Shown piece by piece: positions 929 to 56,394 of a stretch of 64,000 nucleotides of DNA; position 1 is the stretch's first letter, and each line of letters opens with the position of its first letter. The notes under the pieces are model-generated. The model was not told the DNA's origin, made no database searches, and saw nothing but the letters and a program-made list of their open reading frames with translations. A program made the translations under genes and the position numbers. Location: positions 238,115 to 302,114 of the forward strand of contig JAWAKW010000001.1 of assembly GCA_038887295.1 (NCBI GenBank). The letters are read 5' to 3'. Origin of the DNA: Candidatus Anstonellaceae archaeon. Its GTDB lineage: Archaea > Micrarchaeota > Micrarchaeia > Anstonellales > Anstonellaceae.

Positions 929-1012
929 CTAATTTTTTTCCTCTTTTTTTCTAATTTTTTTGCTTTTTTCTTCGACTTAGAGAACCTTTTTTAATATTCG
1001 CATGAAAACAAG

Positions 1013-10802: not shown

Positions 10803-13451
10803 ATGGGAGAGTGGCATTCCAAATCATTAGACAAAGTTATTTCTGAGCTTCAAACAAGTCTGCACGGCCTGTCCCAGGAAGAAGCACAAAGGAGGCTTTC
10901 CATATATGGCAAAAACGAAATAATTGAGGCAAAAAAAGACCCATGGTTTGTACTTTTTTTGAAGCAATTTTCTAGTCTGCCCATCCTGCTTTTGCTTGCG
11001 GCAGCTGCAATTTCACTTACTCTTGGGCTTACAATTGATGACAAGAAGCTTTTGGATGCAATTGCAATCTTTGTTGCAATACTTATAGCAGTCACCTTCA
11101 GCTTCATTCAGGAATACCGCGCAGAAAAGGCAATTGAAGCTTTAAAAAAACTTGTTGTAATGCGCGTTTTGGTCCTGCGAGACGGCAAAGAGGAAATAGT
11201 GGATTCTACCTACCTTGTCCCAGGTGACATCGTCGTGCTTGAGGAAGGAAGCAAGGTGCCTGCTGACATAAGGATAGTTGAGGCAACAGGCAACCTGGCA
11301 GCAGAGCAGTCAGCCCTGACAGGGGAATCCATCCCATCCAATAAAAAGCCAGGTGTGCTTGCAAAGAATCTGCCGATTTCTGAGCAGTACAATATGCTTT
11401 TTGCAGGCACCACCATTGTGCGCGGAAACTGCAAGGGGGTGGTGGTGGAAACAGGGATGAATTCTGAATTCGGCAAAATTGCAGGCTATGTAGGAAAAGA
11501 AAAAGAAAAGGAAGTCAAGCTCCAGCGCGACATAAACGAGCTTTCGCGAAAGCTTGGAATTGCAGGCATATTGCTTGCGCTTGCCTTTTTTGGCATTGGA
11601 CTTGCCAGAGGCGAAAGTATAGTGGACATGTTCGTGGTTGCAGTTACTTTGGCAGTTGCAGTCATCCCTGAAGGGCTGCCCACTGTGCTTGCAATCACTT
11701 TAGCAATCGGAGTGCAACGAATGGCAAAAGAGAATGCAATTGTGCGCAAGATGCCTGCAGTTGAAACCTTAGGCTCTGCTACTATCATCTGCACAGACAA
11801 GACAGGCACCCTCACGCAAAACAAAATATCTGTAGACAAAATAGTGCTTGCGCAAAGCCAATACAGCACAGACAAGCCCCTGCAGCGTACCAACCCTGCT
11901 CTTCAAAAAGCAATAGAAGTGATGGTGCTTTGCAACAGAGCAGTGCAGGCTCAATCAGAAGGAAAGGTAGTTTTCAGCGGAGACCCAACAGAAACTGCGC
12001 TTCTTTATGCAGCAGAAGCGCTGGGCAGCTCTGCAACGAAGCTGAGGGAAAAATACAAGCCAATAGAAGAAATCCCGTTTGACTCAAACAGGAAAATGAT
12101 GAGCACCATCCGCTCATATGGCAAGGAAAAGCTTGCATTTGTCAAGGGGGCACCCGAGCGCGTGCTTTCCTACTCCAGTTCTGTTTTGCTTGAATCCGGG
12201 AAGGTTTCAAAGCTTACTTCAGCGCAAAAGCGCAAGTTCCTCTCAATTGCACACCAGTTTGGGCAGGAAGGCAAGAGAGTGCTTGCGCTTGCCTACCGAC
12301 ATGTTGGCAAGCTGAAAGAATATTCCGCCCAATCTGTAGAAAAAGACCTGATTTTTGTTGGGCTTGTCAGCATGGAGGATCCGCCAAGGCCTGAGGCAGC
12401 AGAAGCAGTTTCGCTTTGCCAGATGGCAGGCATCCGCGTGGTGATGATAACTGGAGATTCACTTTCCACTGCAAAAGCAATTGCAGCAAAAGTCGGATTG
12501 CTTAAGGAAGGGATGGAAGCGGTGGATGGGAGCCAGCTTGAGGGAACCTCAGAAAGCGAATTCAGAAAGATTCTTTCCAAGGCAGCGGTCTTTGCACGAG
12601 TTACCCCAGAGCAAAAATACAGGATTGTTTCCACCTTCATGAAGATGAGACATATAGTGGCAGTTACCGGAGACGGGGTGAATGATGCGCCTGCAATAAA
12701 GAAAGCAGACATCGGAGTTGCAATGGGGGTTACAGGCACAGATGTGACAAAAGAAGTTGCAGACATTGTGCTAACGGATGACAACTTCTACTCAATCGTC
12801 AACGCAGTCCGCTATGGGAGGACCATCTTCAACAACATTAAATCCTTTGTGCGCTACCAGATTTCCACTAATGTTGCAGCGCTTTCTTTGATGTTTTCTG
12901 CCCCTGCACTCTCCTTTCCATTGCCTCTCTTTCCGCTTCAGCTTCTTTGGATAAATATTATGATTGACGGGCCACCAGCGCTTGCCTTGGGTGCAGAACC
13001 TCCTTCCCGCGATGAAATGAAGCGGCCGCCGCGCAGCCCATCTGCCCCATTCTTGAGCAAAAACCTCATCCTTTCCATAGGTGGCCTTGGGCTTATGATG
13101 GCAGCAGTCTCCCTTTTGGTCTTCAGCTATTACCTGGAGTTCTCGCCGCAAAAGGCGCACACAGCAGTTTTCACTTTGTTCGTGTTTTTGCAGCTTGCAA
13201 ATGCTCTCAACTGCCGCTCAGCGCACGAGTCAATTTTTGCCAGGCCATTTGCCAACCCTTATCTTTACCTTGCAATTGTTGCATCGCTTGCGCTTCAGCT
13301 GACAATAATTTACTACTCGCCGCTTTCGGAAATTTTCAAGACAGTGCCTCTTGAGCTGCAGGATTTTGCACTTTTGTTTGTCGCTGCATCCACGGTTGTA
13401 GTGTTTGAAGAAATCAAAAAGAAGTTCTTCAAACACCTAACCTCCTACTAG
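10803..13451 (+). CDS. P-type cation-transporting ATPase (P2-type, Ca2+-ATPase-like)
   Basis: Cation_ATPase_N-like N-terminus. DKTGTLT phosphorylation site, PEGLP, TGDGVNDAPA hinge. Ten predicted TM segments. Confidence 0.9.
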   Translation: MGEWHSKSLDKVISELQTSLHGLSQEEAQRRLSIYGKNEIIEAKKDPWFVLFLKQFSSLPILLLLAAAAISLTLGLTIDDKKLLDAIAIFVAILIAVTFSFIQEYRAEKAIEALKKLVVMRVLVLRDGKEEIVDSTYLVPGDIVVLEEGSKVPADIRIVEATGNLAAEQSALTGESIPSNKKPGVLAKNLPISEQYNMLFAGTTIVRGNCKGVVVETGMNSEFGKIAGYVGKEKEKEVKLQRDINELSRKLGIAGILLALAFFGIGLARGESIVDMFVVAVTLAVAVIPEGLPTVLAITLAIGVQRMAKENAIVRKMPAVETLGSATIICTDKTGTLTQNKISVDKIVLAQSQYSTDKPLQRTNPALQKAIEVMVLCNRAVQAQSEGKVVFSGDPTETALLYAAEALGSSATKLREKYKPIEEIPFDSNRKMMSTIRSYGKEKLAFVKGAPERVLSYSSSVLLESGKVSKLTSAQKRKFLSIAHQFGQEGKRVLALAYRHVGKLKEYSAQSVEKDLIFVGLVSMEDPPRPEAAEAVSLCQMAGIRVVMITGDSLSTAKAIAAKVGLLKEGMEAVDGSQLEGTSESEFRKILSKAAVFARVTPEQKYRIVSTFMKMRHIVAVTGDGVNDAPAIKKADIGVAMGVTGTDVTKEVADIVLTDDNFYSIVNAVRYGRTIFNNIKSFVRYQISTNVAALSLMFSAPALSFPLPLFPLQLLWINIMIDGPPALALGAEPPSRDEMKRPPRSPSAPFLSKNLILSIGGLGLMMAAVSLLVFSYYLEFSPQKAHTAVFTLFVFLQLANALNCRSAHESIFARPFANPYLYLAIVASLALQLTIIYYSPLSEIFKTVPLELQDFALLFVAASTVVVFEEIKKKFFKHLTSY

Positions 13452-18324: not shown

Positions 18325-18326
18325 CG

Positions 18327-18412
18327 GGCTTGTGGCGCAATGGTAGCGCGCCTGCATGGCATGGCTTGCCCATAATGCAGGAGGCTGGGGGTTCGAATCC
18401 CCCCGAGTCCAT
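18327..18412 (+). tRNA. tRNA-Ala (anticodon GGC) with a 14-nt intron at the canonical 37/38 position
   Basis: Acceptor GGGCUUG/CGAGUCC with the G3:U70 Ala identity pair. D-arm GCGC-AATGGTA-GCGC. Anticodon stem CCUGC/GCAGG with loop AU-GGC-A, intron at 18363-18376, then U. T-arm GGGGG-UUCGAAU-CCCCC. Discriminator A. CCA not encoded. Confidence 0.75.
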
Positions 18413-32553: not shown

Positions 32554-34221
32554 ATGGTTTTTATGGTGTATGTGCTGACCCCTTCAAAGAGAAATATCTC
32601 CGCAGCGCACAGCAGACTGGCGGAGGCCCTTGCCTCAAATGGTTTTTTTGCCTCAAAAGGCGTGCTTGCTGACAGGTATTATAAAAAAGACGATCCTTCT
32701 TCACAGACTTTCTTTGTCTATGGGCGATCATTTGAGCCTGATGGAAGCATAAACTCAAAATCTGCATTCAACATCTGCGTGCTTGACACAGGCAGAAGGC
32801 TGAGGGTTTGGTTTTCAAGCACAGAATTCTCACCTCAGGCAACTCAATTCGGATACCACCAATACATTCATTTTTTCTCCTTTTCAGCAGGCAACCTCTC
32901 CAAGTTCATTGCGCAAGTTGTAGATGAAGCAATAAAGGCTTCATGGTGCAAGCCAGAATCTTCCTACAGGATTTTCATCCATAACCATCTTGCAGAGCTT
33001 GGAGGGGTGAACCTGAACAACGCACTTCAAATGTATGATGACGGCCGCTCTTCTTCCGCAGCGCTGCTTTACAATTTGGTGCTTTCGCATGCTGATTTTG
33101 TGGCAATTACACATCACAATCACTTCCTGCTTGCGCCATGGAAGCGCTTTGAAGCGCAAGCAGCAAAATACGGGGTAAGCCTGATTGCAGGCTTTGAAGC
33201 AACCTTGCCTATTTTCCAATTTGAGCCATGGCTTGCAGGCACCCCTGAAGGCAAGGTGCACAATCCAAACGGTCCGCATATCGTGCTTCTTTTTGATAGC
33301 CCTGCTCTTGCTTCTGAATTTTGGGGCAGATACTTTTCTGGCAGGCCACAATACAAATATGCCCCAACTGCATCAGCAGGGGTTGAGCTTTTTGCAATCT
33401 ACGACGAAATAGACAAAAAATACAGTGGCAGAATTGCAAAGCTTATTGCCCACCCTGTTTGTGATGTTTCCTTACCTGATGTAGGGCTAGTAAATCGCGT
33501 AGCAAAAGGAGAAATTTCAGTCTCAGAAATGCTTCAGCTTATCAATCGCTCATCAGGAATTGCAGTATTCAACCTTTCTTTGAACGATAAACCCATCGAT
33601 TTCGGCCTGTATGCTGATCAAGTAAAGGAATGCTCGTATTTTTCAAAGGAAGAAAAGCAGCGCAGACTAAAAAATATCGCTGAAGCAGAAGAATACTTCA
33701 ACAGCATTGTCAAAGCAGCAGGGCTTGAAGGCCTCACACCAAACAATGTCAACTTTGCCTTATCTTTGCAGTTCAGCAAGACACTAATTCCCTTTGTTGA
33801 TACTGATGCACACAATTTTGACTGGGGGTATACTAATCTTGGCCCTTTCCATTGGATGATTCGCTCTATGGGACTTTTTGCAGCAGGCCACAATACGCTT
33901 TCATTTGATACTTTGCCTTCCGCCAAGCCCTCCCCGACAGAAGTAGTCCATTTCATCGAAAAGAAAGGTAAAGTGGAAGGATGCCGCTGGGCTTTCACTT
34001 TATTTTCCGAGATAAAAGATGGTCGCCTTCAAATAACTCTAAAAAGAAGGGAGTCTGCCTGGTCTCAAAAAATATTCAATCTGCTTGAAAAGGCATACTA
34101 TTATGTAAAGCAAGTGACCACACTGGGTTCTGATACTGCTCAGGCCATGGCAGATCAGGGCTCACTTCACGAGCCTTTAGTAATGCTACGCGGCTCAATA
34201 CCTGGCACCATACCAAAATAG
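32554..34221 (+). CDS. Large hypothetical protein with a PHP-like metal-dependent phosphoesterase signature in its N-terminal half
   Basis: FIHNHL...YDDG (motif I-like), VAITHHNH (motif II-like), GFEATLP (motif III-like), PHIVLLFD. The C-terminal roughly 250 aa could not be assigned. Confidence 0.4.
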   Translation: MVFMVYVLTPSKRNISAAHSRLAEALASNGFFASKGVLADRYYKKDDPSSQTFFVYGRSFEPDGSINSKSAFNICVLDTGRRLRVWFSSTEFSPQATQFGYHQYIHFFSFSAGNLSKFIAQVVDEAIKASWCKPESSYRIFIHNHLAELGGVNLNNALQMYDDGRSSSAALLYNLVLSHADFVAITHHNHFLLAPWKRFEAQAAKYGVSLIAGFEATLPIFQFEPWLAGTPEGKVHNPNGPHIVLLFDSPALASEFWGRYFSGRPQYKYAPTASAGVELFAIYDEIDKKYSGRIAKLIAHPVCDVSLPDVGLVNRVAKGEISVSEMLQLINRSSGIAVFNLSLNDKPIDFGLYADQVKECSYFSKEEKQRRLKNIAEAEEYFNSIVKAAGLEGLTPNNVNFALSLQFSKTLIPFVDTDAHNFDWGYTNLGPFHWMIRSMGLFAAGHNTLSFDTLPSAKPSPTEVVHFIEKKGKVEGCRWAFTLFSEIKDGRLQITLKRRESAWSQKIFNLLEKAYYYVKQVTTLGSDTAQAMADQGSLHEPLVMLRGSIPGTIPK

Positions 34222-34515
34222 CTAGCATATTACAATCGTCTCTACTCCTGGCTGCATTCTTCTTATAAAACAGTCTATCTTAGTTGCAATTCTGAGAGCT
34301 TCGACATCAGGATAGTCTTTCCTGAGCTCTTCCTTCAACTTATACGCCAAAGCAATTTTTTCATCTATTTTTCCATCCGGAAGACTTTGAAGAATTTTTA
34401 ATGCAGATTCTGCTATCTTCTTTTTGTAAGGCCGATACTTCTGCTTTGATGCACATTCAATCAGCCTTTCAGCAGCTTTGATCCCCATTAAATCCCCCCA
34501 CTTTTTTCCCACCAA
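34222..34515 (-). CDS. Hypothetical protein (97 aa)
   Basis: ORF in an AT-rich block. Confidence 0.3.
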   Translation of the reverse strand: MVGKKWGDLMGIKAAERLIECASKQKYRPYKKKIAESALKILQSLPDGKIDEKIALAYKLKEELRKDYPDVEALRIATKIDCFIRRMQPGVETIVIC

Positions 34516-34608
34516 ATATTTTATAAGCCTATCGCTCCTGCTGCATTTTCTTCTTTTATCAAGCCAAACTGCATAATTTTTAATTTTTGACCAGATAACT
34601 TGAAGTTT

Positions 34609-35402
34609 ATGTTTCGAAGTTTGTTTTCAATCATTTCACTTCTTTTTTGCTCTTCCTTTTTGGCTGCTATAGCCCGCAGCCCGCACCACCTTCATCAACT
34701 GAGAAGCCGTCACCTCAATTGACGCCTTCTCTTCGTGCTGAGATCTGCAATAAAATTTCTGACGCAGACACAAAAAATTTTTGCTTAGGAATGCTTACAA
34801 AAAATTTAGAATACTGCGACAAAATTACGACCAATGAAAACAAAAGACAAATGTGTTATTCTAATATTGCAATCGACATGCAGAATCCTTCCGTTTGCTA
34901 TAAAATAAATGAGCCGGGAGCATTTCAAAATTGTTTCGCTCTTGCATCTAGGAATGTCTCACAATGTCTCTTAGACCCTCCTTACGGATTCAATCCGATA
35001 AAAAACACCTGCATTTCAAATTTTGCAGCACTTGTAAATGACGATAGCATCTGTGTTTACTCTCAATACAAAGAAGTCTGCTTCCTCAGAGTTGCAATAT
35101 CAAATAACAATGCTGCATTATGTGAGTCTGCCGGCCCAGGGCGTGATTCTTGTTATTTTGAGATCGCATCTTCGACTTCGGATGCCTCCCTTTGCAAAAA
35201 TTTATCCCAAGATGTTTTCCAACAGGCATGTACTGCAATAATTTTTCAGAAGCTTTCCGATTGCCCTGCCGATTTGAAGCACATTTGCTTGATGAAAATT
35301 ATCCTAAAAACAGGAGATTATTCGCAGTGTGAAAGCATTCAGGATATAACTCGGGATGAGTGCTTGGTAGCCGTGGCATTAGCCGGAATCTTGAAAATAT
35401 AG
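34609..35402 (+). CDS. Cys-rich secreted/lipoprotein-like protein; signal peptide and mature domain are in different frames (frameshift in a T-run, or pseudogene)
   Basis: The ATG at 34609 encodes a signal-like MFRSLFSIISLLFCSSFLAA in frame +1, which then stops. The Cys-rich body (34647-35402, frame 0) starts only at a TTG just inside a T6 run (34643-34648) and begins ...LFLFGCYSPQPAPP. Confidence 0.4.
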
Positions 35403-35417
35403 TTGATGAGTGATTAG

Positions 35418-35735
35418 ATGGATTCAGAGACATTTATCGTTTCTATTAGGAAAAATTTAGCATACCTTGACACTCCTATATGGATTTCAGCTAAAGATGG
35501 AATAACAACTGCAGAATGGAATAATTACCGTCTTTTAGGTTCTTTCTTTATGTTTCTGTGCGGTGCAGTGGGTTATTCAGTGCTCGGATTAATACTGATT
35601 ATATCTCTCTCATCTTTGACATATCTCCTTACAACTCGGTGGCTTTTTGAGTTATTGCCTGCTCCTTGGTCTGAGTTAGATCTGCTTTTGCTGTTGACAC
35701 CTATTCTTTCAGTTTTTCCATTCACCAAAACATGA
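35418..35735 (+). CDS. Hypothetical multi-TM membrane protein (105 aa)
   Basis: ORF with hydrophobic helices; AT-rich. Confidence 0.35.
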   Translation: MDSETFIVSIRKNLAYLDTPIWISAKDGITTAEWNNYRLLGSFFMFLCGAVGYSVLGLILIISLSSLTYLLTTRWLFELLPAPWSELDLLLLLTPILSVFPFTKT

Positions 35736-35753
35736 CCAACAATTTTTTCTCAG

Positions 35754-36059
35754 TTGAAATCAAATCCACGCAAAATAATTAGCACCCAAGGGGCAATTAC
35801 CTATAATGAGCAAGGGAAAGAATATGTTCTGCACAAAGCAAAAACAAGAGTAACCTACCAAGCTTCTAATCTATTTGGAATCTTACCTTTCAAAGTCGTT
35901 ACATTCTATTTTGAATCCGACGGAATAAAACTTCCTTTCTACAAAGTTTTGTTGTCTTTAAGTTTTGTGAAAAATGAAAATTATAAAGATGAGAGGTGCG
36001 ACAACTTTGTTAATCAGATAGAACGCACTTTTGGGTTGACTGGCAGAAACACATCTTAA
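35754..36059 (+). CDS. Hypothetical protein (101 aa)
   Basis: ORF only; AT-rich. Confidence 0.3.
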   Translation: MKSNPRKIISTQGAITYNEQGKEYVLHKAKTRVTYQASNLFGILPFKVVTFYFESDGIKLPFYKVLLSLSFVKNENYKDERCDNFVNQIERTFGLTGRNTS

Positions 36060-36592: not shown

Positions 36593-36666
36593 GCCCTCGT
36601 GGTATAACTTGGATAGCATGCGAGCTTGCGGAGCTTGAGATCCGCGTTCAAATCGCGGCGAGGGCG
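36593..36666 (+). tRNA. Putative tRNA-Arg (anticodon GCG) with a non-canonical D-arm
   Basis: Acceptor GCCCUCG/CGAGGGC. Anticodon stem CGAGC/GCUUG with loop UU-GCG-GA. T-arm CCGCG-UUCAAAU-CGCGG. Discriminator G; 74 nt. The D-stem pairs poorly (GUAU...), so it may be a slightly aberrant or pseudo tRNA. Confidence 0.45.
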
Positions 36667-36757
36667 CCTTAATTTTAAAGGTGATGGCAATGAGGAAAGG
36701 GAAAAGGTCTGCCGTCAGGCGGCAATCCAGAAAGAGAGCAAAATCCAACTGAGTTTT

Positions 36758-37582
36758 ATGGATGTAACTGAGCGCGATTTTCAGGAATGCAAGGCAGTGC
36801 TGCAAAAAGGCTCAAAGACTTTCTTTTTCTCATCAAAAATCCTGCCAAAGGAAAAGAAGAAAGCCTTTTGGGCGGTTTATGCTTTCTGCCGCAAGACCGA
36901 CGATATAGTTGATGAGGGAGATGAAGACGCAGATAGCAAGGCAAAAAGGCTTTATTTGTGGAAAAGGCAGCTTTTGAGGGCTCTTTCAGGGAAAGGGAGC
37001 AGCGAGCCAGTGATTAGAGCATTTGCGAAAGTCGCTTTGCAGTACAAAATACCCAAAGCCTATCCTCTCATCCTCATGAAGGGCGTCAGCACGGATTTGC
37101 GCAAGCAGGAATTTCGCACCTTCCGCCAACTGCGGGCATATTGCTATTCAGTTGCCTCGGTGGTTGGGCTGATGCTTCTTCATGTCATGGGCGTAACTTC
37201 TGCGGCTGCTAAAAGAAAGGCAATTGCATTGGGGATTGCAATGCAGCTTACCAACATCCTGCGCGATGTGGCAGAGGACCGTGCTGTAGGGAGAATCTAC
37301 CTTCCCACCAAAGATTTGAAGCGCTTTCGACTTTCCCGCTCTGATATAAGGCCAAATTTGCCAAAAAGCAAAAAAGAGGCATTCCGCAAGCTGATCGAAT
37401 TTGAGTGCAAGCGGGCGCAGCGCTACTATGACCAGGCAGCTTCAGGCATTTTGCTTTTGCCAAAAGGCTTGCAGGTTGCAATAGCTACCGCCTCCAGCCT
37501 TTACTCCAGCATACTGCAAAAGCTGAAAAGGGCAAATTATGACGTCTGGGCTTCTGCCAAACTTTCAAACAGATTTACTTAA
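36758..37582 (+). CDS. crtB: Phytoene synthase (squalene/phytoene synthase family)
   Basis: DxxxD-containing FCRKTDDIVDE. Second Asp-rich region (...NILRDVAEDRAVGRIYLP). Start placed at the Met after the tRNA (MDVTERDF...). Confidence 0.75.
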   Translation: MDVTERDFQECKAVLQKGSKTFFFSSKILPKEKKKAFWAVYAFCRKTDDIVDEGDEDADSKAKRLYLWKRQLLRALSGKGSSEPVIRAFAKVALQYKIPKAYPLILMKGVSTDLRKQEFRTFRQLRAYCYSVASVVGLMLLHVMGVTSAAAKRKAIALGIAMQLTNILRDVAEDRAVGRIYLPTKDLKRFRLSRSDIRPNLPKSKKEAFRKLIEFECKRAQRYYDQAASGILLLPKGLQVAIATASSLYSSILQKLKRANYDVWASAKLSNRFT

Positions 37583-46989: not shown

Positions 46990-48302
46990 GTGCTTCAGCG
47001 TTGTTTTTAAATTTCAATGCAGCCACTCTTGCAGGTGTTTTCTTGTCCAAAATTGTTCGTGTGCATGCAAGGGAAGTTTTGGATTCTCGCGGCAACCCCA
47101 CCATTCAAGTGGAGGTTTTTTCGCAAAAAGGCGTTGGGACGGCAATTGCGCCTGCAGGGGCATCCACCGGCGCCCACGAGGCAGTTGAGCTTCGTGATGG
47201 TGGAAGCAGGCTTGGAGGCAAAGGGGTGCAAAAAGCAATTGCTGCAGTGAATGGTGAGATTTCATCAGCTCTCAAAGGAGTAGAGGTCTCAAATCAAAAA
47301 AGGATTGACAGCATCCTTTGCAAATTGGATGGCACCTCAAACAAATGCCGCCTCGGCGCAAATTCCACAACCGCAGTCTCAATTGCAGCTGCGAAATGTG
47401 CAGCATCAGAAAAAAAAGTCGGGCTTTATCGCATTCTTGGCAAATCATTCCTTCTGCCATGTCCTTTCCTTAACGTGATAAATGGCGGCAAACACTCTGG
47501 AAGCGGGCTTTCAATTCAGGAATTCATGCTGGTTCCTTTGGGGTTCAGAAAATTTTCAGAGGCTTTGTTTGCAGCAGCAGAAGTATATCATGCTTTGGGC
47601 AAACTGATTTCCAAAAAATACGGGAGAATTTTCCTTGGAGTAGGAGATGAAGGAGGCTTTGCTCCACCATGCAAAAGCGCGCACGAAGCCCTCAAGCTTC
47701 TTGAGGATGCGGTTTTGGAGTGCGGCTTTGGGGGCAAAATAAAATTTGCAATTGATGCAGCCGCCTCCTCATTTTTCCAGCCTGCCTCAAAATCCTATCT
47801 TCTGGACGGCAAGCTACTTTCCCCGCCTCAATTGCTGGATTTTTATGCACAGCTTGCATCCTCATTTCCGATAGTTTCAATTGAAGACCCATTTGAAGAA
47901 GAAGCATTTGCAGACTTTGCGCTCCTTCGCAAACGTTTGGCAGGCAAAGTCCAAATTGTCGGGGACGACCTTTTTGTCACCAACATCTCAAGAATAAGGC
48001 ATGGGATAAAGCAGGCTTCTGCTTCAGCTTTGCTTTTGAAGGTCAACCAAATCGGCACTTTAAGCGAGGCTCTGCACGCAGCCTCAGTTTGCAAAAGGCA
48101 CAAAATGGCAGTAATGGTCTCACACCGCTCTGGAGACAGTGAGGATGCTGCAATTGCAGACCTTGCGGTGGGGATTGGCTGCGGGCAAATCAAATCCGGC
48201 GCGCCAGCCCGCTCGGAAAGGACTGCCAAATACAACCGCCTTATACAAATAGAAGAGGAGCTTGAAGGAAAGTTTGCACAAGACCGCACGCTCAAATTCT
48301 AA
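46986..48302 (+). CDS. eno: Enolase
   Basis: AREVLDSRGNPTIQVEV and catalytic ...SHRSGDSED... Probable GTG start overlapping the elp3 stop; the listed ORF's upstream extension overlaps elp3. Confidence 0.85.
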   Translation: MSASALFLNFNAATLAGVFLSKIVRVHAREVLDSRGNPTIQVEVFSQKGVGTAIAPAGASTGAHEAVELRDGGSRLGGKGVQKAIAAVNGEISSALKGVEVSNQKRIDSILCKLDGTSNKCRLGANSTTAVSIAAAKCAASEKKVGLYRILGKSFLLPCPFLNVINGGKHSGSGLSIQEFMLVPLGFRKFSEALFAAAEVYHALGKLISKKYGRIFLGVGDEGGFAPPCKSAHEALKLLEDAVLECGFGGKIKFAIDAAASSFFQPASKSYLLDGKLLSPPQLLDFYAQLASSFPIVSIEDPFEEEAFADFALLRKRLAGKVQIVGDDLFVTNISRIRHGIKQASASALLLKVNQIGTLSEALHAASVCKRHKMAVMVSHRSGDSEDAAIADLAVGIGCGQIKSGAPARSERTAKYNRLIQIEEELEGKFAQDRTLKF

Positions 48303-48616
48303 TCCAGCCCATACTTTTTCTTTATCCCAACTTCAGGATGATTGGCAACTTCGTTCAGCTGAGCCACCAAATAAGAGGCAAGCTTTTTTGCAACCTCTGC
48401 TTCCTCCTTGCCCATAATGGCATAATTGCTTTGTATGTTGCTTCTCCACTCCCACTGTGCGGCTATCTTGCTTTTGTTCCCGTCCCTTTCAATTTCATGC
48501 AGCCCAATAAGGACAAGCAAGTATGGTCGCCCCTCATTTTCCTCCAAAAGCTTTGCACCAGTTTCATCTGCAATTTTACGAAGCTTCTGCTCAGCTTCCT
48601 TTAATTTAGCTTCCAT
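48299..48616 (-). CDS. Hypothetical protein (105 aa)
   Basis: ORF overlapping the enolase stop. Confidence 0.35.
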   Translation of the reverse strand: MEAKLKEAEQKLRKIADETGAKLLEENEGRPYLLVLIGLHEIERDGNKSKIAAQWEWRSNIQSNYAIMGKEEAEVAKKLASYLVAQLNEVANHPEVGIKKKYGLD

Positions 48617-48660
48617 GAATAAATCCTTCTAGCCATATTTTTAAGCATATTTGGCAAGGG

Positions 48661-49188
48661 GTGGTGAAATTGGATTTTTTTGAGGCGGTCCAAAGGAGGG
48701 TTTCTGTAAGAGAATTCCTTCCAAAAGAAATCGGAGAGGAAAATCTCCACAAGATTCTGTCTGCAGTCATGCTTGCGCCTTCTGCAGGCAATCTGCAAGC
48801 TTTCAGAGTGGTGCTGGTAAAGGATGCAAAGCTAAAGGAAAAAATTGCAGCTGCGTCATTTGAGCAGGACTTCATTTCGCAAGCCCCTCTGGTGCTTGTT
48901 TTCTTGGCTGACCGCAAGCGCTCACAAGCAAAATACGGCACTCGCGGCGCAAGCCTTTATTGCATCCAAGACGCAACAATTGCAGCAGCCTACTGCCAGC
49001 TTGCAGCAACAGCACTCGGATTGGGAAGCGTATGGGTAGGGGCATTTGAAGAGGAAACAATCGCCTTGCTGGTGCGGGCAAAGCCCCATGAGATTCCCGT
49101 GGCAGTGCTTCCGATTGGCTACCCAGCCTGCCAGCAAGAGCGGCCTCCTAGGCCAAATTTGGCTCAAAAAATAGCTTATGTGCCCTAG
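48661..49188 (+). CDS. Nitroreductase-family protein
   Basis: RRSVREFLP N-terminal motif. About 175 aa. FMN-binding pattern. Confidence 0.7.
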   Translation: MVKLDFFEAVQRRVSVREFLPKEIGEENLHKILSAVMLAPSAGNLQAFRVVLVKDAKLKEKIAAASFEQDFISQAPLVLVFLADRKRSQAKYGTRGASLYCIQDATIAAAYCQLAATALGLGSVWVGAFEEETIALLVRAKPHEIPVAVLPIGYPACQQERPPRPNLAQKIAYVP

Positions 49189-49199
49189 CGGCTTCACGC

Positions 49200-49700
49200 T
49201 GTTACCATCTGATTTTTTGCCATGTTTCTTCCACCTGTTCCTTCTTTGTTTTTAGCATCATTCACGATACGGCTCTCATATAAGACAGAAATAAGCGCCT
49301 TGTCGCTTGGATTTTCTACAGCATCTATGAGTTTGTCAATATCCTCTTTTGTAAGGCCAACGGTAGAATCTCTTGAGCGTTACTCTGTAGACTCCCCTGG
49401 TGACTGGTCTAAGCTTATCGTTTCGCTCTGTCTTGGCTAATATTGTCTTAATGTCTGCTTTGGAAGCCTTCTCTTTGAAAGGCTTTTCAAGCATTCTGGC
49501 AAGAGGCCATATCCTTGAGCCTAGATCAGTATCCTATCCGCAGTCAGCCCGTAGCAGAGCAATTGTCAAAAAGCAAGCTCAGAGTTCTTTATTTTCTGTA
49601 TCCGCCACTGCAGTCTATCCTTATTTCCGTAGATGTCTTGTTTCTCCATGAGTAACACCCTTTCATCCACCCCTTTATTAGGAAGTGTCCTTGGCGCTAC
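49200..49700 (-). pseudogene. Decayed tyrosine-recombinase (integrase) gene fragment with multiple frameshifts
   Basis: Minus-strand translation gives MEKQDIYGNKDRLQWRIQKIKNSELAF*, then in another frame ...MLEKPFKEKASKADIKTILAKTERNDKLRPVTRGVYRVTLKRFYRW..., then LTKEDIDKLIDAVENPSDKALISVLYESRI.... This is the integrase pattern Lt.eei.kLl.a...rd.ali.llyetGlR, truncated soon after. No ORF of 60 aa or more in the listed track covers this. Confidence 0.45.
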
Positions 49701-49715
49701 CATTTCTGTCCGACA

Positions 49716-49788
49716 CGCCCCGGGCAGGACTTGAACCTGCGACCTGTGGATTAACAGTCCACCGCTCTACCAACTGAGCTACCGAGGC
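49716..49788 (-). tRNA. tRNA-Asn (anticodon GUU)
   Basis: Minus strand GCCUCGG-UA-GCUC-AGUUGGUA-GAGC-G-GUGGA-CUGUUAA-UCCAC-AGGUC-GCAGG-UUCAAGU-CCUGC-CCGGGGC-G. 73 nt. Confidence 0.8.
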
Positions 49789-49790
49789 AA

Positions 49791-49883
49791 TGCCACAGGC
49801 CGGATTTGAACCAGCAACACATCGGTTTCAGAACTCATTTTGAGTCTTCAGCCGATTGCTCTCCCAGGTTGAGCTACTGTGGC
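49791..49883 (-). tRNA. tRNA-Phe (anticodon GAA) with a 19-nt intron at 37/38
   Basis: Acceptor GCCACAG/CUGUGGC with discriminator A. D-arm GCUC-AACCUGGGA-GAGC. Anticodon stem AUCGG/CCGAU with loop CU-GAA-G, the intron, then A. T-arm GCUGG-UUCAAAU-CCGGC. Lies 2 nt from tRNA-Asn. Confidence 0.75.
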
Positions 49884-49965
49884 ACCGTTGCTTGTTTGTG
49901 CAGTTGTGATTATAAAAGATTAGCTTTTTCAAAGCGATTATATTGCTTGTGCAAGGAAGATTTGC

Positions 49966-50391
49966 ATGGCCTGGAAGATCGATGAAGTGGACAGGAAAAT
50001 CTTGCAGCTTTTGCAAAACGATGCACGCATGACAAACGAAAAGATTGGCAAAAAGGTGGGGCTTTCAGAGCCTGCAGTCAGGCGAAGGATAAAGAATCTG
50101 GTTCAGCAAGAGATAATAAAGCGATTTACAGTTGACATAGCAGAAAGCTGGAGCATCAGTGCATTGGTGCTGGTCTCAACTTCTCCAGACGCCAACCAAG
50201 AAAAGCTGATGAAATTGATTTGCATGCAGGAATGGGTCAAGTCCGCATGGGAAATCTCAGGAGAGATGGACATTGCAGTGATAGTGTGCGCTCCAGATGT
50301 CGATTCGCTCAACCGCTGCATAGATGAAATAAGGAAAATAAGCGGGATAGTGAAGACTCAAACCCACATAATAATGAAAAAGAGAAAATAG
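49966..50391 (+). CDS. Lrp/AsnC-family transcriptional regulator
   Basis: N-terminal HTH (DRKILQLLQNDARMTNEKIGKKVGLSEPAVRRRIKNL) plus a RAM domain. Confidence 0.8.
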   Translation: MAWKIDEVDRKILQLLQNDARMTNEKIGKKVGLSEPAVRRRIKNLVQQEIIKRFTVDIAESWSISALVLVSTSPDANQEKLMKLICMQEWVKSAWEISGEMDIAVIVCAPDVDSLNRCIDEIRKISGIVKTQTHIIMKKRK

Positions 50392-51528
50392 CTAGCTTTT
50401 CATCAACTCCGAAAATATTTTTACAAGCTGCAAATAGCTTTCTTTTGTTATCCACTCATCCGCAGAATGCTCATTTGCGCCAAGCGGCCCCACGCCTATC
50501 ACCGGAACCTCAAGCAAGGCAAGTGCATTCTCATCGGCAACCGAGGCTCCATATGTGTAGACGGGTGGGCCGGCATGCTTTCTTACCGCAACTTCCACCA
50601 ACTTTACAGCGCTGCCTTTGCGCCGAGTAATGTAAGGGGAAAGATAAGGGGTTTTGCGGGGTTTGAGGCGAACTTCAATCCTCTTTCCGTCTATCTCTTT
50701 GAATTTTCCTTTTGCATAAAGCGAGTTGATATAAGCCTGAGTTTGCTTAAGTGCACTTTCAGGCGTTTGCGGGGGGACAAGGTGGCGGTCCAGCTCAAGG
50801 ATTGCCTGCTGAGGCACTGAAAGCGAAGTGCTTTCTGCGCTTATTTTCCTGACAAATTGAGTGGGTGGAGGAAGAAGCGGATGCGAGCCAAGATGTCTAT
50901 TCATCTTTTTGAGGTGCAAAATCAACCTAGCCGCTTCCTCTATTGCATTTGTCCCGCGTGCTGCCTGCGCCCCGTGGGCAGATGCACCGGGGACAGTTAT
51001 CTCAAGCACGCACCTTCCGCGCCTCCCCAAAGTTATCTGCCTTGGCCCAAGGCACCTTCCCACCGAGGATGCAATCTCACCTGTGATTACTGCCTCTGCA
51101 TCAGATGCAAAGCCGCTTTTCAGCAAAGCAAAAGCACCTTCAGATATATTTTCCTCGTCAGCACAAAACGCAACCTTTACTTTCCTTTCAGATGCTTGCC
51201 TGCAGGCACAAAGGACTGCAGCAACCCCTGCTTTCATGTCAAATACTCCAAGGCCATAAAGTCTGCCGTCTTCCTCGGTTAAGCAGAAGGGGTCGTGCGT
51301 CCACATCCCATAAGGAGGGACAGTGTCCATATGCCCGTAAAAAAGCAGCGGCTTACCTTTTTTGCCCCTCTGCCCCACCACATTGAACCTCCCATCATCC
51401 AGCCAGATTCTTTTTGTGGAAAAGCCTGCTTGCCGGAGCTGCTCTTCAAGAAACTTGGCCAGCCGGTTTTCATTCCCAGTTATTGAATTGATGGAAACAA
51501 TCTTTTCCAGAAGGGAAACCTCATCCAT
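50392..51528 (-). CDS. M20-family metallopeptidase/deacylase (ArgE/DapE-like)
   Basis: GHMDTVP metal-binding motif, and D/E/H ligands. Confidence 0.75.
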   Translation of the reverse strand: MDEVSLLEKIVSINSITGNENRLAKFLEEQLRQAGFSTKRIWLDDGRFNVVGQRGKKGKPLLFYGHMDTVPPYGMWTHDPFCLTEEDGRLYGLGVFDMKAGVAAVLCACRQASERKVKVAFCADEENISEGAFALLKSGFASDAEAVITGEIASSVGRCLGPRQITLGRRGRCVLEITVPGASAHGAQAARGTNAIEEAARLILHLKKMNRHLGSHPLLPPPTQFVRKISAESTSLSVPQQAILELDRHLVPPQTPESALKQTQAYINSLYAKGKFKEIDGKRIEVRLKPRKTPYLSPYITRRKGSAVKLVEVAVRKHAGPPVYTYGASVADENALALLEVPVIGVGPLGANEHSADEWITKESYLQLVKIFSELMKS

Positions 51529-51536
51529 CCAACCGC

Positions 51537-52496
51537 CTATTTTGCATAAAAGACTTGGAGAGATTCATATTCATAGTTTTGCTGGTAGTTGAAATTGCGG
51601 TCGCTTACTAGCACGCAATGGAACGGCAGCCTGCCTGCATACTCCATTCCGGCTTCGCGAGAGGATTTCAGCACAGGAAGCCACGGCGCACGGTCTTCTG
51701 CATAAATTAGTGCCTCAGGATAGATGCTTCGGATGAGGTTTATGGCTGCAATCTGCAAGGCAGTAATCAGTCCCTTGCCTCTTTCTGCCTTAAAGGTGGC
51801 AAAATCCGAAAGCTCAAAAAGCCTCACCAAACGCCCATCTATCTCAAAACTGCACCCTTCTGCAATAAGCACCGACACAATTTTTCCTTCTACATTCCTT
51901 GCAAGCACTACCCTATTGCCATTGCTCAGCATATAGTTTATTGTATCCTCGTTTATTTCAAAAGTGTATTTGGCATACGCCTCGGAATACAAATTCAGCA
52001 AGGTGCGAATATCTTCCTTGCCTTGCGCAGAAAAGCAGATGCGGTATCCGCAGCTTTCCACCCTTTCAAATGCCTTCTGCTGCGGAATAGGGCTGACTGA
52101 GGAAAGCACATAGCGTATGTTTTCTATCTCGTTTTTGGTGGTTTCAGCATCAGGCATCCTTTCTGGCTTGTTTGCCCCAAAATACACTAAGTCAAACCCT
52201 TTAATTGCCCTGTCTGCAGGCATTTTGGCTTCCACTTCAAATTTTGCAACCTTACTTATCCCGTCAATCAGGCCTTTGCGTACAAATGCCCTCACAGTGG
52301 TTCTGGTCGCAGAGGGATTTTTGCTTTCAAAATCAGCCACTTTCAAAAAAAGTTCTTCCAAATCCACTTTCTTGCAGATGAGCTTTCCGTATATCCCCTT
52401 TATCCTGCGATTGTGCTCATCATAGTGAAGGCCGACAGAGCCTATGCTGCCAACATTTGCCTTCTTTGCGTATGCAACTGCCTGTTCAAGTGCCAT
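51537..52496 (-). CDS. Hypothetical protein with a possible C-terminal GNAT-like acetyltransferase domain
   Basis: The C-terminal half has a weak GNAT pattern (...RGKGLITALQIAAINL...). The N-terminal half is unassigned. Confidence 0.35.
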   Translation of the reverse strand: MALEQAVAYAKKANVGSIGSVGLHYDEHNRRIKGIYGKLICKKVDLEELFLKVADFESKNPSATRTTVRAFVRKGLIDGISKVAKFEVEAKMPADRAIKGFDLVYFGANKPERMPDAETTKNEIENIRYVLSSVSPIPQQKAFERVESCGYRICFSAQGKEDIRTLLNLYSEAYAKYTFEINEDTINYMLSNGNRVVLARNVEGKIVSVLIAEGCSFEIDGRLVRLFELSDFATFKAERGKGLITALQIAAINLIRSIYPEALIYAEDRAPWLPVLKSSREAGMEYAGRLPFHCVLVSDRNFNYQQNYEYESLQVFYAK

Positions 52497-52600
52497 TTTT
52501 ATCGCAAGTTAAATTGTCAGAAGTTTTTATAAATGTTGACTTTTTTCGTTTAAATATTTTGAAAAATTGGAATACTTTCAAAAAAATTTAACGAAATTCG
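52497..52600. promoter_or_regulatory. AT-rich region with nested palindromes and TTCGTT/AACGAA half-sites upstream of 51537-52496
   Basis: TTCGTTTAAAT...TTGAAAAATTGGAATACTTTCAAAAA...TTAACGAAATTCGTTAA (17-nt palindrome). Confidence 0.35.
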
Positions 52601-53074
52601 TTAAATTTCCGCCTTCAGCCTCATGTGTTCTTTCATCATGCACCTATCCATTACAAAAAAGATGCCTGCCTGCTTTGCTATTGTTTGGGCTTGCGGGCTT
52701 ATCACCTCCTCTTGAAGCCAAACAGCCTTTGCCCCTACCCTTATTGCCTCATGCACCAGCGGCGGCACCGCCTCTGGCTTCCTGAAAACATCCACCACAT
52801 CTATTTGGTGAGGGACTGCGGCAAGCTCAGGATAGCTTTTTTTACCCATCCATTCCTGCAAGTTAGGGTTGATAGGCACCACTTCATAGCCTTGGCTTGC
52901 AAGGTAGCTTGCAACATGAAAACTAGGGCGGTCCTGCTTGTCAGAAATCCCAACAATTGCAACCCTTTTCATCCCTAATATCTTTTTGATAATCTCCTTT
53001 TCGCCAGGAAGATATTCTCTGGTTGGAAGGCAGATATTGGAAGGTTTCTCCTCTTTATTCACCTGCACCACCAC
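52601..53074 (-). CDS. CoA-binding domain protein
   Basis: RVAIVGISDKQDRPSFHVASYLASQGYEVVPINP is typical of CoA_binding_2/YccU-like proteins. Confidence 0.65.
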   Translation of the reverse strand: MVVQVNKEEKPSNICLPTREYLPGEKEIIKKILGMKRVAIVGISDKQDRPSFHVASYLASQGYEVVPINPNLQEWMGKKSYPELAAVPHQIDVVDVFRKPEAVPPLVHEAIRVGAKAVWLQEEVISPQAQTIAKQAGIFFVMDRCMMKEHMRLKAEI

Positions 53075-54155
53075 CCATTGCTTTTTTTATTGCCTCAATT
53101 GGCGCATTGGTCCTCACCGCAGTTGGGCAAAAGTGCGTCCTTGAGGCAGCAAACCCTTCTGCACGCAGTGCAGAAACCATTTTGTTTACTGAGATGATTC
53201 CCTGCTTTGTTTTGGAGGCAATCTCATGCAAGTCGTAATAGCCATATCTTCCAATTTCGCATTCCTGCCAAAGCAGCAAAAGCAGTCTGGAAATTTCATC
53301 TTTTTCTTCAAAGTTTTTGCTTTGATTTAGCTGTGTCATTTTTTCCAAGATGCTCTTTTCCCAAAGCTGGCCCATCCACAGTGGGCCTGCCCACGAAAGC
53401 TTGAAGTTGCACGCAGGGCAGGCAAGCGAGGACGGCATCCTTTCTGAAAATCTTGCCAGGCAGTTTGTGCAGTAAAGCCCAAATCCTGTGCTTTTGACAG
53501 ATTCCACTGCCCCGCGCGCCCCTTTGCGTACCTTGAAAATCACTTTTATGTAATGGCGGTGCGAAAGCGTAAAGATGGGTATTACCCCCAGGTTGAATTG
53601 CGCCGCACAGATGGCAGTTTTTCCAATCAGTATCCTTACGGCATTCTCGTGGCACATTTCGTTGTTTGCAGGCACCGCACCATAGTTTTTTATGCAAGCA
53701 GAATGATGCGCCCCGCAAAGAACTGCAGTATCTGTGGCAGTTATTGACAAGAACCCCTCCTTTTTCTTGGCAAGGCACCTGCATGCGTCAAACAGAAACA
53801 AAGCAGGGGAGCCAAAGGGGTCCAGCTCCACGAAGTCAAATTCCCCTTCTTGTAAAAACAGGGAGGCGTCCTGTTTTTTTATGCTGCATTTGACTTTGTT
53901 TGCTGAAGCATTTTTCCTTGCGCACTCCACTGCTGCTTTGCTTCGGTCACACAGCACCAAGGTTCCAACATTATCATTCTCCTTTTTGTAGCGCAGCCCC
54001 CTCACCCCACTTGCACACATTACATCTGCAACTGAAATTTCCTTTTCCAGTGCGCCAACAGCCAGGCTGCACAAAGTTCTGCATAGCCTCATCTGCGGAT
54101 TGTAGAAAACACCTTTTGGAATGGAAAGTCGAACTGCACCTTCCGTTATCCTCAT
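53055..54155 (-). CDS. trm1: tRNA (guanine26-N2)-dimethyltransferase
   Basis: Trm1 family: SAM-binding DVMCASGVRGLRY, C-terminal Cys cluster, about 366 aa. Confidence 0.8.
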   Translation of the reverse strand: MRITEGAVRLSIPKGVFYNPQMRLCRTLCSLAVGALEKEISVADVMCASGVRGLRYKKENDNVGTLVLCDRSKAAVECARKNASANKVKCSIKKQDASLFLQEGEFDFVELDPFGSPALFLFDACRCLAKKKEGFLSITATDTAVLCGAHHSACIKNYGAVPANNEMCHENAVRILIGKTAICAAQFNLGVIPIFTLSHRHYIKVIFKVRKGARGAVESVKSTGFGLYCTNCLARFSERMPSSLACPACNFKLSWAGPLWMGQLWEKSILEKMTQLNQSKNFEEKDEISRLLLLLWQECEIGRYGYYDLHEIASKTKQGIISVNKMVSALRAEGFAASRTHFCPTAVRTNAPIEAIKKAMGGGAGE

Positions 54156-54206
54156 GCTTCACTTCACTTCAGCAAGTGATAAAAAGCATTATTGGAAAAG
54201 AGGGTT

Positions 54207-55448
54207 ATGCAAGTTGAAATAAGGCGCTCTATAATTTCAGGTAGGCGCCCAGCCCCTCCTTCTGTTGCAGTTGCGCACCGTGCAATAATTGCTGCCTCAT
54301 TTGCAGACGGCCAAAGTGTGGTTTCGCCTGTCCTCCTCTCTGATTCCCTTAATGCCACCATTTCAATTTGCAACCAGCTTGGGGCAGACATAATAGTCAA
54401 AGAAGGAGTAGCAGACATAATTGGAGGGGGTGAGATTTTCCCAAAAGAAAATATAGACTGCCAGGAAAGCAACACTGCACTCAAGCTCTTTTTCGGGATA
54501 TTTTCACACCTTCCGGTTGAGGTGCGCTTTGTTGGGAAAGGGAGTCTTCTTGAGGCGAACCTTCGCCCATTCACATATTTTATAGACTATTATTCAGGTT
54601 ACACTTTCAACCCGTCCGCATCTCTCCCGCTTCAGCTTCGCGGGCCAATCCAAAGTGAGGAGATGAAATACCCTGCCTTGCTTGGCACCCAATTTCTTTC
54701 TGGCCTCATTTTGGGAGCTCCTTTCAATACCCAAACAACAGGCATTGCAATTGATGGAGATTTCAAAGACCCGCATTGCTTGCATGAAACCATAAGAATC
54801 ATGAAGCAAGCAGGAGTTGATTTTGTTGCAGACTACGATGATTTGATTATCGTGCAAGGCGAGCAGGGGTACCTTCCCCTTGGCGATTTTGAGGTTCCAA
54901 AAAACAGGAAAGCAGCATCATATTTGCTTTTGGCAGGTGCGCTTGCAGGGAAATGCACAGTGGAAGGGGTTTCAAACTATCCTCGCCTTGACGCTGTCTT
55001 TTCGCACTTTGGCGCATTAGTAAATTCGCAAGAAAATTCAATTTCAGCAAGCACCTCTTTCCTGAAGGCTTCGGACTTTGACTTAAGTACTGCAGGGGAG
55101 CTTGCCTGCCATGCGTTGGTGCTTGCTTGTCTTGCTGAAGGCCAAAGCAAGCTGATCGGCTTTCCGAAACTTCCTTGGCACCTCAAAGAGAGGCTTAAGA
55201 AGCTGAAGTTTGAGCTTTCAAAAATGGGGGCTTCAATAATTGAAATCCCTGAAGGCTTTTTGGTGGAAGGAAGAAGGCTTCATGGGGCAGAGATCGCTTG
55301 CAGCAAAGACCCGCACATTGCAATGTCCTGTGCTGCGGCCGCCCTCTGCGCCCAAGGACCCACCACTATCACTGATGCAGAATGTGCAGAAAAAATCTTC
55401 CCAGGATTTTTCCGCGAGCTTGCGCTGCTTGGCGCAATAATCCGCTAA
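54207..55448 (+). CDS. aroA: 3-Phosphoshikimate 1-carboxyvinyltransferase (EPSP synthase)
   Basis: EPT-family fold: N-terminal [31 protein letters not shown]-terminal ...[10 protein letters not shown]. Start placed at the internal Met. Confidence 0.7.
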
Positions 55449-55603
55449 ATTTCGCCTACTCTCCTTTTGAGTTTGCGTTTTAGGCGCTTGCGCCTTTTTT
55501 TGAGCCATTTCCAGCGCATCCTTCCCTTCTTTTTCCACTTCCTTGGTCTTGCTCCCAAAAAGTCACCCTAAACTTGCTTTTTACCTAAGATAGAATTATA
55601 AAT

Positions 55604-55822
55604 TCAGCCTTTTTTCCACGGCTTCCTGTAAGCATCCAAAAGCCCGTGCGCATAGTTGATGCAGCCAAATGCAGTAAGGAAGTCCTTTTTTTCAAGGAAA
55701 TATTTTGCATCCTGGCAGTATTTTTCTGCAAGCTCTATGACGTCTTTGTTGTGCCGCGTCCGCTTTACCTGCTTGAGGTTTTCGTAAAATTGTGCAATGT
55801 CAGATTCAATCCTTTCCATCAA
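55604..55822 (-). CDS. Small archaeal conserved protein (DUF357-like)
   Basis: 72 aa with ...AFGCINYAHGLLDAYRK.... Overlaps the bud32 stop by 4 nt. Confidence 0.45.
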   Translation of the reverse strand: MMERIESDIAQFYENLKQVKRTRHNKDVIELAEKYCQDAKYFLEKKDFLTAFGCINYAHGLLDAYRKPWKKG

Positions 55823-56394
55823 ATCCTCTCCATATAGCGCGCCCTGCTTTCTATTTTCCGCGCAGCCTCTGCAACAGCCTGACTGCCGCCTGCCTTCACA
55901 TACTCTTTGACAAACTTCTCCCCACGCTTGCCAAGCGCATGCTTCATAGTTACCAAATCAACTGCTTTGTCTTCTTTGTCCTGGCTTATGAATGACAGCC
56001 CAAAATCAATGACTGCCATCCCAGCAGAAGTAATCATCAAGTTTGCGGGTGTATAGTCGCCATGAATTATGTCATATTCATGAAGCCTCGCAAGAATCCT
56101 TGCAGCCTCTCTGATATGCCGCAGCCTCACCTTACCTTTTTGCAGCATGAAATGAAGCATCTTCCCGTCAATGAATTTCATCAGAATTGAAAACCTGTCA
56201 ACATAGTACACAACCGGGCAAAGCACTCCTGCCTGCTTTGCGCGGGCAAGCACCCGTGCCTCTCTTTTCGTCCTGCTTTCTCGGATTGCCAAGTCAAGCT
56301 GGGCATTCCGATAGGGCTTGGGGATCCTTATCTTTTTGACTGCTTTGCACCCAAGAAAAGTAGCCTTCCTTATTATTGCTTCCGCCCCTTTCAT
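55819..56394 (-). CDS. bud32: KEOPS complex Bud32/PRPK atypical protein kinase
   Basis: Catalytic loop IIHGDYTPANLM, DFGLS, and an N-lobe lysine region. Start set at the internal ATG (MKGAEAIIRK); the listed 326-aa ORF's N-terminal extension overlaps the M50 protease gene. Confidence 0.75.
   Translation of the reverse strand: MKGAEAIIRKATFLGCKAVKKIRIPKPYRNAQLDLAIRESRTKREARVLARAKQAGVLCPVVYYVDRFSILMKFIDGKMLHFMLQKGKVRLRHIREAARILARLHEYDIIHGDYTPANLMITSAGMAVIDFGLSFISQDKEDKAVDLVTMKHALGKRGEKFVKEYVKAGGSQAVAEAARKIESRARYMERI

Follow-up and report, generated by a model that had tools for sequence, protein, structure and literature searches.

A decayed tyrosine integrase gene beside tRNA-Asn in a Candidatus Anstonellaceae archaeon

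What fills the spacer between a nitroreductase gene and a pair of tRNA genes in the genome of a Candidatus Anstonellaceae archaeon (Micrarchaeota, DPANN)? We analysed a 64,000-nt stretch of this genome, referred to here as the window (GCA_038887295.1, contig JAWAKW010000001.1, positions 238,115-302,114), and all coordinates below are window positions unless a relative is named. On one side of the spacer lies the nitroreductase gene (48661..49188, plus strand; PF00881, E 3e-27 in Pfam), which ends in a stop codon at 49186-49188. On the other side lies an intact tRNA-Asn(GTT) on the minus strand (49716..49788; ARAGORN; Rfam 75.9 bits), with its 3' end at 49716, preceded by tRNA-Phe(GAA), the first of the tRNA pair, which contains an intron of ~20 nt (49791..49883, minus strand; ARAGORN; RF00005, 52.5 bits). 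An AsnC/Lrp-type regulator is found beyond the tRNA pair, transcribed divergently, and the enolase gene is located 0.9 kb from the integrase remnant described below. An earlier note on this DNA, made from the letters, had stated that no intact ORF is present between the nitroreductase and tRNA-Asn. Indeed, the nitroreductase stop and tRNA-Asn are 526-527 bp apart and no ORF between them exceeds 83 aa. Searches against Rfam returned no family at this position besides the tRNAs.

The same note had proposed that the spacer holds a frameshifted tyrosine integrase. We retrieved the corresponding protein family using a bait sequence that was composed after the motifs had been recognised as those of a widespread archaeal integrase family, and the bait itself is not evidence. 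The profile HMM was built from real database proteins only, namely the best 120 of the 5268 retrieved at E<=1e-5, and is 395 positions in length. Among the matches listed, most are proteins of 390-430 aa containing PF00589, often together with a zinc ribbon; in their sources, several bear the name integrase or tyrosine recombinase. The profile was searched against all 2261 stop-free pieces from the six-frame translation of the whole 64-kb window, amounting to 128 kb translated. Two minus-strand pieces gave significant matches, 49533..49339 (E 8.6e-9, profile positions 58-105) and 49379..49197 (E 7.2e-8, positions 135-162), and a third gave a weak match, 49766..49569 (E 2.2, positions 2-24). 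The three pieces are collinear, and all remaining pieces of the window had E values of 1.4 or higher. A repaired conceptual protein scored 66.5 bits (E 2.7e-19) against the profile, compared to a best score of 6.3 bits among 500 shuffles. In tblastn comparisons, identities to single proteins were 43-64% in the conserved blocks FYKW and LTxEExxKLIxAAxxPRDKALxxxLYES. Translation of the minus strand gave all three peptides cited in the note, their matches are far beyond chance, and the identification of a frameshifted tyrosine-integrase remnant beside the tRNA-Asn/tRNA-Phe pair holds.

The family was also re-found by phmmer without the bait. The 65-aa core-binding piece alone, searched against 1.84 billion representative proteins, gave 8 matches at E<=1e-3, the best at 1.2e-6. 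These include P0123, P0125 and P0126 (389-403 aa, 45-48% identity), which combine PF00589, SAM_4 and zinc-ribbon domains, and the SAM_4 domain of P0125 covers the residues homologous to the core-binding piece of the remnant. Since this bait-independent search agrees with the family profile, we regard the homology as established.

Several general searches gave less. The best Pfam matches, to the SAM-like core-binding families Phage_int_SAM_1 and SAM_4, were sub-threshold (E 0.08-0.16). A word-index protein search with the raw concatenated pseudo-protein, the first database search made, returned 43 candidates, none with E<=0.01. With the remnant as query, PHROGs gave nothing meaningful and the PDB sequence search gave only chance matches (E>0.5). 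The tblastn search of a plasmid collection found nothing significant, its one match at E=4 being to a bacterial tyrosine recombinase. The sub-threshold Pfam scores and the empty first search might be taken as signs of chance similarity in non-coding DNA. However, the two significant matches are independent of each other, are collinear with the weak third and are the only ones in the translated window, the shuffle control separates cleanly from the repaired protein, and the whole-library phmmer search reached E 1e-6. We therefore regard chance similarity as excluded.

Two further observations concern the N-terminal part. Among the best matches to the core-binding piece are four short library proteins, P0121, P0122, P0127 and P0128 (175, 126, 179 and 65 aa, respectively), which hold the integrase N-terminal region alone and are either contig-end fragments or similar truncated remnants elsewhere. 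In addition, an 8821-bp Logan contig from SRR27730019 (L001) is 100% identical to window positions 47463-56283, and on this contig a 45-aa ORF (49566-49703), corresponding to the N-terminal remnant of the integrase, has been called as a gene.

The remnant can be read along the minus strand from 49649 to 49272, which corresponds to roughly the first 165 positions of an archaeal tyrosine integrase of ~395. Although it stays collinear with the family, the gene is interrupted within ~380 bp by two stops in frame, a pair of frameshifts and a pair of internal deletions. A leader of 66 bp (49650..49715, minus strand) connects the 3' end of tRNA-Asn to the integrase ATG at 49649. This leader is unlike the 43-bp spacer found at the same place in a relative (L002, below) and is presumably element-derived DNA. 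Segment 1a, MEKQDIYGNKDRLQWRIQKIKNSELAF (49569..49649, minus strand), covers profile positions 2-24 (hmmsearch; tblastn with P0061, P0011 and P0053) and ends at an in-frame stop at 49566-49568, and ~10 family residues after profile position 24 are absent from the remnant. Segment 1b, QLLCYGLTADRILI (49524..49565, minus strand), continues in the frame of segment 1a and matches the family motif CFAEGLSxxRxxxY (tblastn to P0061; profile alignment of the repaired protein). In tblastn, the frame of these two segments reads NSELAF, stop, QLLCYGLTADRILI, stop before the first frameshift, with the second stop at 49521-49523 and the frameshift near 49518-49530.

Segment 2, SRIWPLARMLEKPFKEKASKADIKTILAKTERNDKLRPVTRGVYRVTLKRFYRW (49357..49518, minus strand), is shifted by one base and covers profile positions ~55-105, giving the stronger of the two significant matches in the six-frame search. 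In the frame map it runs as SRIWPLARMLEKPF...LKRFYRW (49518-49357). This is the core-binding (SAM-like) domain, with 43-53% identity to P0021, P0061, P0079 and P0053 by tblastn. Before segment 3 the remnant has lost profile positions 106-134 (~29 aa), a deletion that breaks the frame. Segment 3, LTKEDIDKLIDAVENPSDKALISVLYES (49272..49355, minus strand), returns to the first frame and accounts for the second significant match, at positions 135-162. It comprises the first 28 residues of the catalytic domain, with 57-64% identity to six family members by tblastn, and also matches positions 91-124 of the NCBIfam XerA_Arch model (E 0.0016). The description in the note needs correction in that the first segment runs on past a stop without changing frame.

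The remnant ends at the LYES(G.R) motif, the site of the first catalytic arginine, and consequently the catalytic residues and the zinc ribbon are gone. Only profile positions 135-162 of the catalytic domain are left and the active-site set R..K..H-x-x-R..H/W..Y is absent. No match to profile positions 163-395, the catalytic half, was found in any frame of the 64-kb window, and no Cys-rich match to the C-terminal zinc ribbon (PF13240 / PF12773) was found near the locus. Because the catalytic domain is missing past position 162, the locus is a pseudogene derived from a member of the tyrosine recombinase superfamily (PF00589 / DNA_BRE_C) rather than a functional member. The 83 bp that remain before the nitroreductase gene (49189..49271) show no similarity to the integrase, to tRNA-Asn or to the L002 spacer, by profile search or by local alignments, which were no better than shuffles. 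This tail contains the junction of the deletion that removed profile positions 163-395 and the remaining element.

The earlier note had suggested looking for a matching int(C) half and for direct repeats of the tRNA 3' end as att sites, and neither is present in the 64-kb window. As for attR or attL repeats, no tRNA-region 12-mer or longer word has a second copy in the window, and copies of the 3'-terminal 18-30 nt of tRNA-Asn, allowing up to ~17% mismatches, are likewise absent from it. Local alignments of the spacer gave no remains of attR or of the ancestral spacer that were significant relative to shuffles. Neither an int(C) nor another integrase was found among the ORFs of the low-GC stretch by tRNA-Arg. 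No other genes of the element survive in the window.

These data bear on the idea, favoured in the note, that the fragment is the int(N) of an SSV-type suicidal (type I) integrase, in which attP would lie inside int and integration would have split the gene. Suicidal integrases are frequent among archaea, and those of SSV, pTN3 and pT26-2 have a PF16795 (Phage_integr_3) domain and disrupt their own gene at the att site; type II (pNOB8-like) integrases, like XerA, contain PF00589 with SAM-like domains and remain intact (PMC8371274). An N-terminal integrase fragment adjoining a tRNA in an archaeon is what SSV1, pTN3 and pT26-2 integrases would leave. However, the orientation of our remnant is the opposite of that expected. 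The note had the fragment pointing into the tRNA cluster, but with its start codon 66 bp beyond the 3' end of tRNA-Asn the gene runs away from the tRNA pair. The intact start and its leader face tRNA-Asn, while the truncated end faces the nitroreductase, ~440 bp from the tRNA, such that the break is not at the att/tRNA junction. An att split also leaves the internal frameshifts and deletions unexplained. The homologues listed carry PF00589, with or without SAM-like domains, and none carries PF16795; Pfam gave no PF16795 match at the remnant itself, where most of the catalytic domain is missing. In addition, intact homologues are unsplit beside tRNAs, and the window holds no int(C) partner. We therefore judge an SSV-type origin to be highly unlikely. 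An N-terminal integrase fragment beside an archaeal tRNA is, alone, no proof of an SSV-type split.

We compared the locus with related genomes, as the note had advised. The closest relative found is another Ca. Anstonellaceae MAG (L002, enolase 83% identity), followed here by a Micrarchaeota MAG (L003, 73%). Gene order in L002 is the same as in the window: ELP3-like, enolase, a 105-aa ORF, nitroreductase, tRNA-Asn, tRNA-Phe, AsnC regulator, M20 peptidase and onward. The flanking genes, called housekeeping in the note, are accordingly chromosomal. The nitroreductase, which has the same C-terminal end in both genomes, is thus a chromosomal flank outside the element. In L002 the spacer between nitroreductase and tRNA-Asn measures 43 bp instead of 526 bp, and the L002 site is thus empty. 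In L003 the nitroreductase is missing, and tRNA-Asn again has no integrase next to it. The tRNA-Asn genes of the window and L002 are identical over all 73 nt, and it is precisely at their 3' end that the similarity breaks off. Intergenic regions nearby share 83-91% identity in the two genomes, whereas the remnant spacer cannot be aligned. It follows from this comparison that ~480 bp were inserted, in a lineage-specific manner, at the 3' end of tRNA-Asn. Neither relative carries this insertion, and the proposal that the locus is the scar of an integrated element, the remainder of which was lost, is the best reading of the data.

Other attempts to find the element gave little. No relative with an intact element at tRNA-Asn was found, and a metagenome scan with the exact tRNA-Asn sequence had 0 matches. 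A scan of viral sequences with the tRNA-Asn 3' end as candidate attP returned one unrelated high-GC phage with its own tRNA-Asn. Searches with the pseudo-protein returned nothing, both in the viral-contig scan and by tblastn against 81 loci retrieved by enolase.

Some features of the flanks are shared among these genomes. The 105-aa ORF between enolase and nitroreductase (48299-48616, minus strand) has no significant Pfam match (ParE_toxin, E 0.064); it is kept in L002 and L003, and adjoins tRNA-Asn directly in L003. The tRNA-Asn and tRNA-Phe genes are separated by a gap of 2 nt (window 49716-49883, minus strand; L002 12183-12352; L003 ~11987-12180), with ~17 additional bases between them in L003, and because the gap is only 2 nt they are probably made as one transcript. 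The exons of tRNA-Phe do not vary in L002 and L003, but L003 has a different, longer intron, and its tRNA-Phe was missed by ARAGORN.

Might the remnant still do something? It could encode a functional short product, such as a domesticated N-terminal DNA-binding peptide or one made by programmed frameshifting, or act in cis as a spacer for expression of the tRNA pair. The calling of the 45-aa ORF as a gene on the identical Logan contig and the existence of N-terminal-only relatives in the representative library (P0121, P0122, P0127) would fit such a product, although these short library proteins may be mere contig-end fragments. The density of stops, frameshifts and deletions in 380 bp, with a longest open piece of 65 aa, argues against it, as does the lack of any Rfam match except the tRNAs. 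Moreover, the region is dispensable, since it is absent from L002 and L003. A functional product or spacer is accordingly extremely unlikely, and the remnant is presumably without function today.

Archaeal integrases prefer the 3' ends of tRNA genes and regenerate the tRNA (PMC8371274; Badel, Da Cunha & Oberto 2021). We examined eight intact family members on their contigs. Three of the eight (P0079, P0061 and P0093, located in L083, L085 and L088) follow a same-strand tRNA at a distance of 22-49 bp. All three are uninterrupted genes of 401-434 aa and rank in the top 14 of the 120 family proteins by similarity to the remnant. The remnant has the arrangement of this tRNA-adjacent group, with tRNA-Phe, tRNA-Asn, the leader and the int start following each other on the minus strand. 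At L083, no att repeats involving the tRNA were found within 13 kb. The other five members are without an adjacent tRNA and reside in islands with restriction-modification, toxin-antitoxin or Cdc6/ORC-like genes, and tRNA targeting is therefore not universal in the family. The family is represented on viral contigs of IMG/VR as well, often at their ends. At L087, L105, L106, L107 and L108, intact members often stand beside genes for a Cdc6/ORC-like AAA ATPase and for defence (type I restriction-modification, GmrSD, AbiEii, MazE/PIN). Such neighbours suggest integrative plasmid-like or defence-island elements.

A further alternative, that the remnant is a decayed chromosomal XerA paralogue or other host recombinase and involves no mobile element, has two points in its favour. 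The sole NCBIfam match is to recomb_XerA_Arch (NF040815; E 3.6e-4), a member of the same superfamily that is weakly similar over the core-binding domain and the beginning of the catalytic one, in a match that extends across the frameshift joining segments 2 and 3; other element genes are also absent. However, this match scores 20.2 bits against a cut-off of 220, while the ~395-aa zinc-ribbon family gives 66.5 bits. The family match begins at residue 2 and thereby covers an N-terminal extension that is typical of the mobile-element family and that XerA lacks. The remnant is no conserved housekeeping locus but part of a lineage-specific insertion beside a tRNA, missing from two relatives, with the tRNA-adjacent geometry of intact family members. 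The family itself is found on viral contigs, and also in islands that carry genes for defence and replication. A host paralogue is thus very unlikely.

The closest known system is the widespread type II family of ~390-400-aa archaeal site-specific integrases with an N-terminal SAM-like domain, PF00589 and a zinc ribbon (P0079, P0125, P0126). Type II integrases (pNOB8-type, lambda-like, non-suicidal) belong to the XerA/XerC/pNOB8 supergroup (She et al. 2002; Badel, Da Cunha & Oberto 2021, PMC8371274). The remnant resembles this family in being collinear with it over positions 2-162 and in lying just downstream of an intact tRNA on the same strand, as in L083, L085 and L088. It differs in keeping only the first ~40% of the gene, in its stops, frameshifts and deletions, in the loss of the catalytic residues, zinc ribbon, remaining element and attR, and in its Micrarchaeota (DPANN) host.

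We consider it very probable that an element once integrated at tRNA-Asn, and that the remnant is what deletion and erosion have spared of its classical type II integrase gene. A mobile element, either a provirus or an integrative plasmid, carrying a non-suicidal tyrosine integrase would have entered an ancestor of this Ca. Anstonellaceae lineage. Its integrase would have been of the ~395-aa type, in which a SAM-like core-binding domain and a PF00589 catalytic domain are followed by a zinc ribbon at the C-terminus, and would have directed site-specific recombination into the 3' end of tRNA-Asn(GTT), the presumed integration target (attB/attL side). Since no att repeat survives in the window, we infer integration at tRNA-Asn from position alone. 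Integration would have regenerated an intact tRNA and placed int just downstream on the same strand. The element would then have been inactivated, and one or more deletions would have extended from integrase position ~163, where the first catalytic Arg motif lies, up to and including the distal attachment site, taking with them the catalytic two thirds of int, the cargo of the element and attR. We favour loss by one large deletion. The ~380 bp of int that were left would subsequently have collected the stops, frameshifts and internal deletions, two of each.

The locus is an ordinary scar of a mobile element, of a kind already known. Its importance goes little beyond annotation, in that the spacer is better called an integrase pseudogene than small ORFs. 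It also marks tRNA-Asn as a former integration site in this Micrarchaeota lineage, and adds one more data point for DPANN genomes acquiring, and then eroding, classical tRNA-targeting mobile elements. We hold at low confidence the view that a virus or plasmid integrated into the tRNA-Asn of a Ca. Anstonellaceae genome by means of an integrase lineage otherwise sampled here mostly from non-DPANN archaea. If intact copies of the element still circulate in this population, the fragment could provide a handle with which to find the mobile element of an episymbiotic DPANN archaeon and to link it to its host. Retention of the N-terminal DNA-binding piece for some function is an even more speculative reading.

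Elsewhere in the window, three low-GC stretches (1001-3000, 7001-8000 and 34001-36000) have a GC content of 0.35-0.39, compared to 0.46 overall, and contain ORFs without a Pfam match (1013-3856, 947 aa; 6844-8214; 34647-36059). They are possibly other horizontally acquired DNA, and none of the three contains an integrase of the ~395-aa family. For an 86-nt tRNA on the plus strand (18326-18411; Rfam 59.4 bits), ARAGORN reported an anticodon of four bases (ggca) without naming an amino acid; this is probably an archaeal tRNA with an intron. The stretch 34001-36000 is just upstream of a MazE/ACT-domain gene and tRNA-Arg (36593-36666). An ORF on the plus strand (36626-37582) has a TTG start inside this tRNA-Arg and a squalene/phytoene synthase Pfam match from residue 59. 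Because the match starts only there, the true start probably lies downstream of tRNA-Arg, with no real overlap between the two genes.
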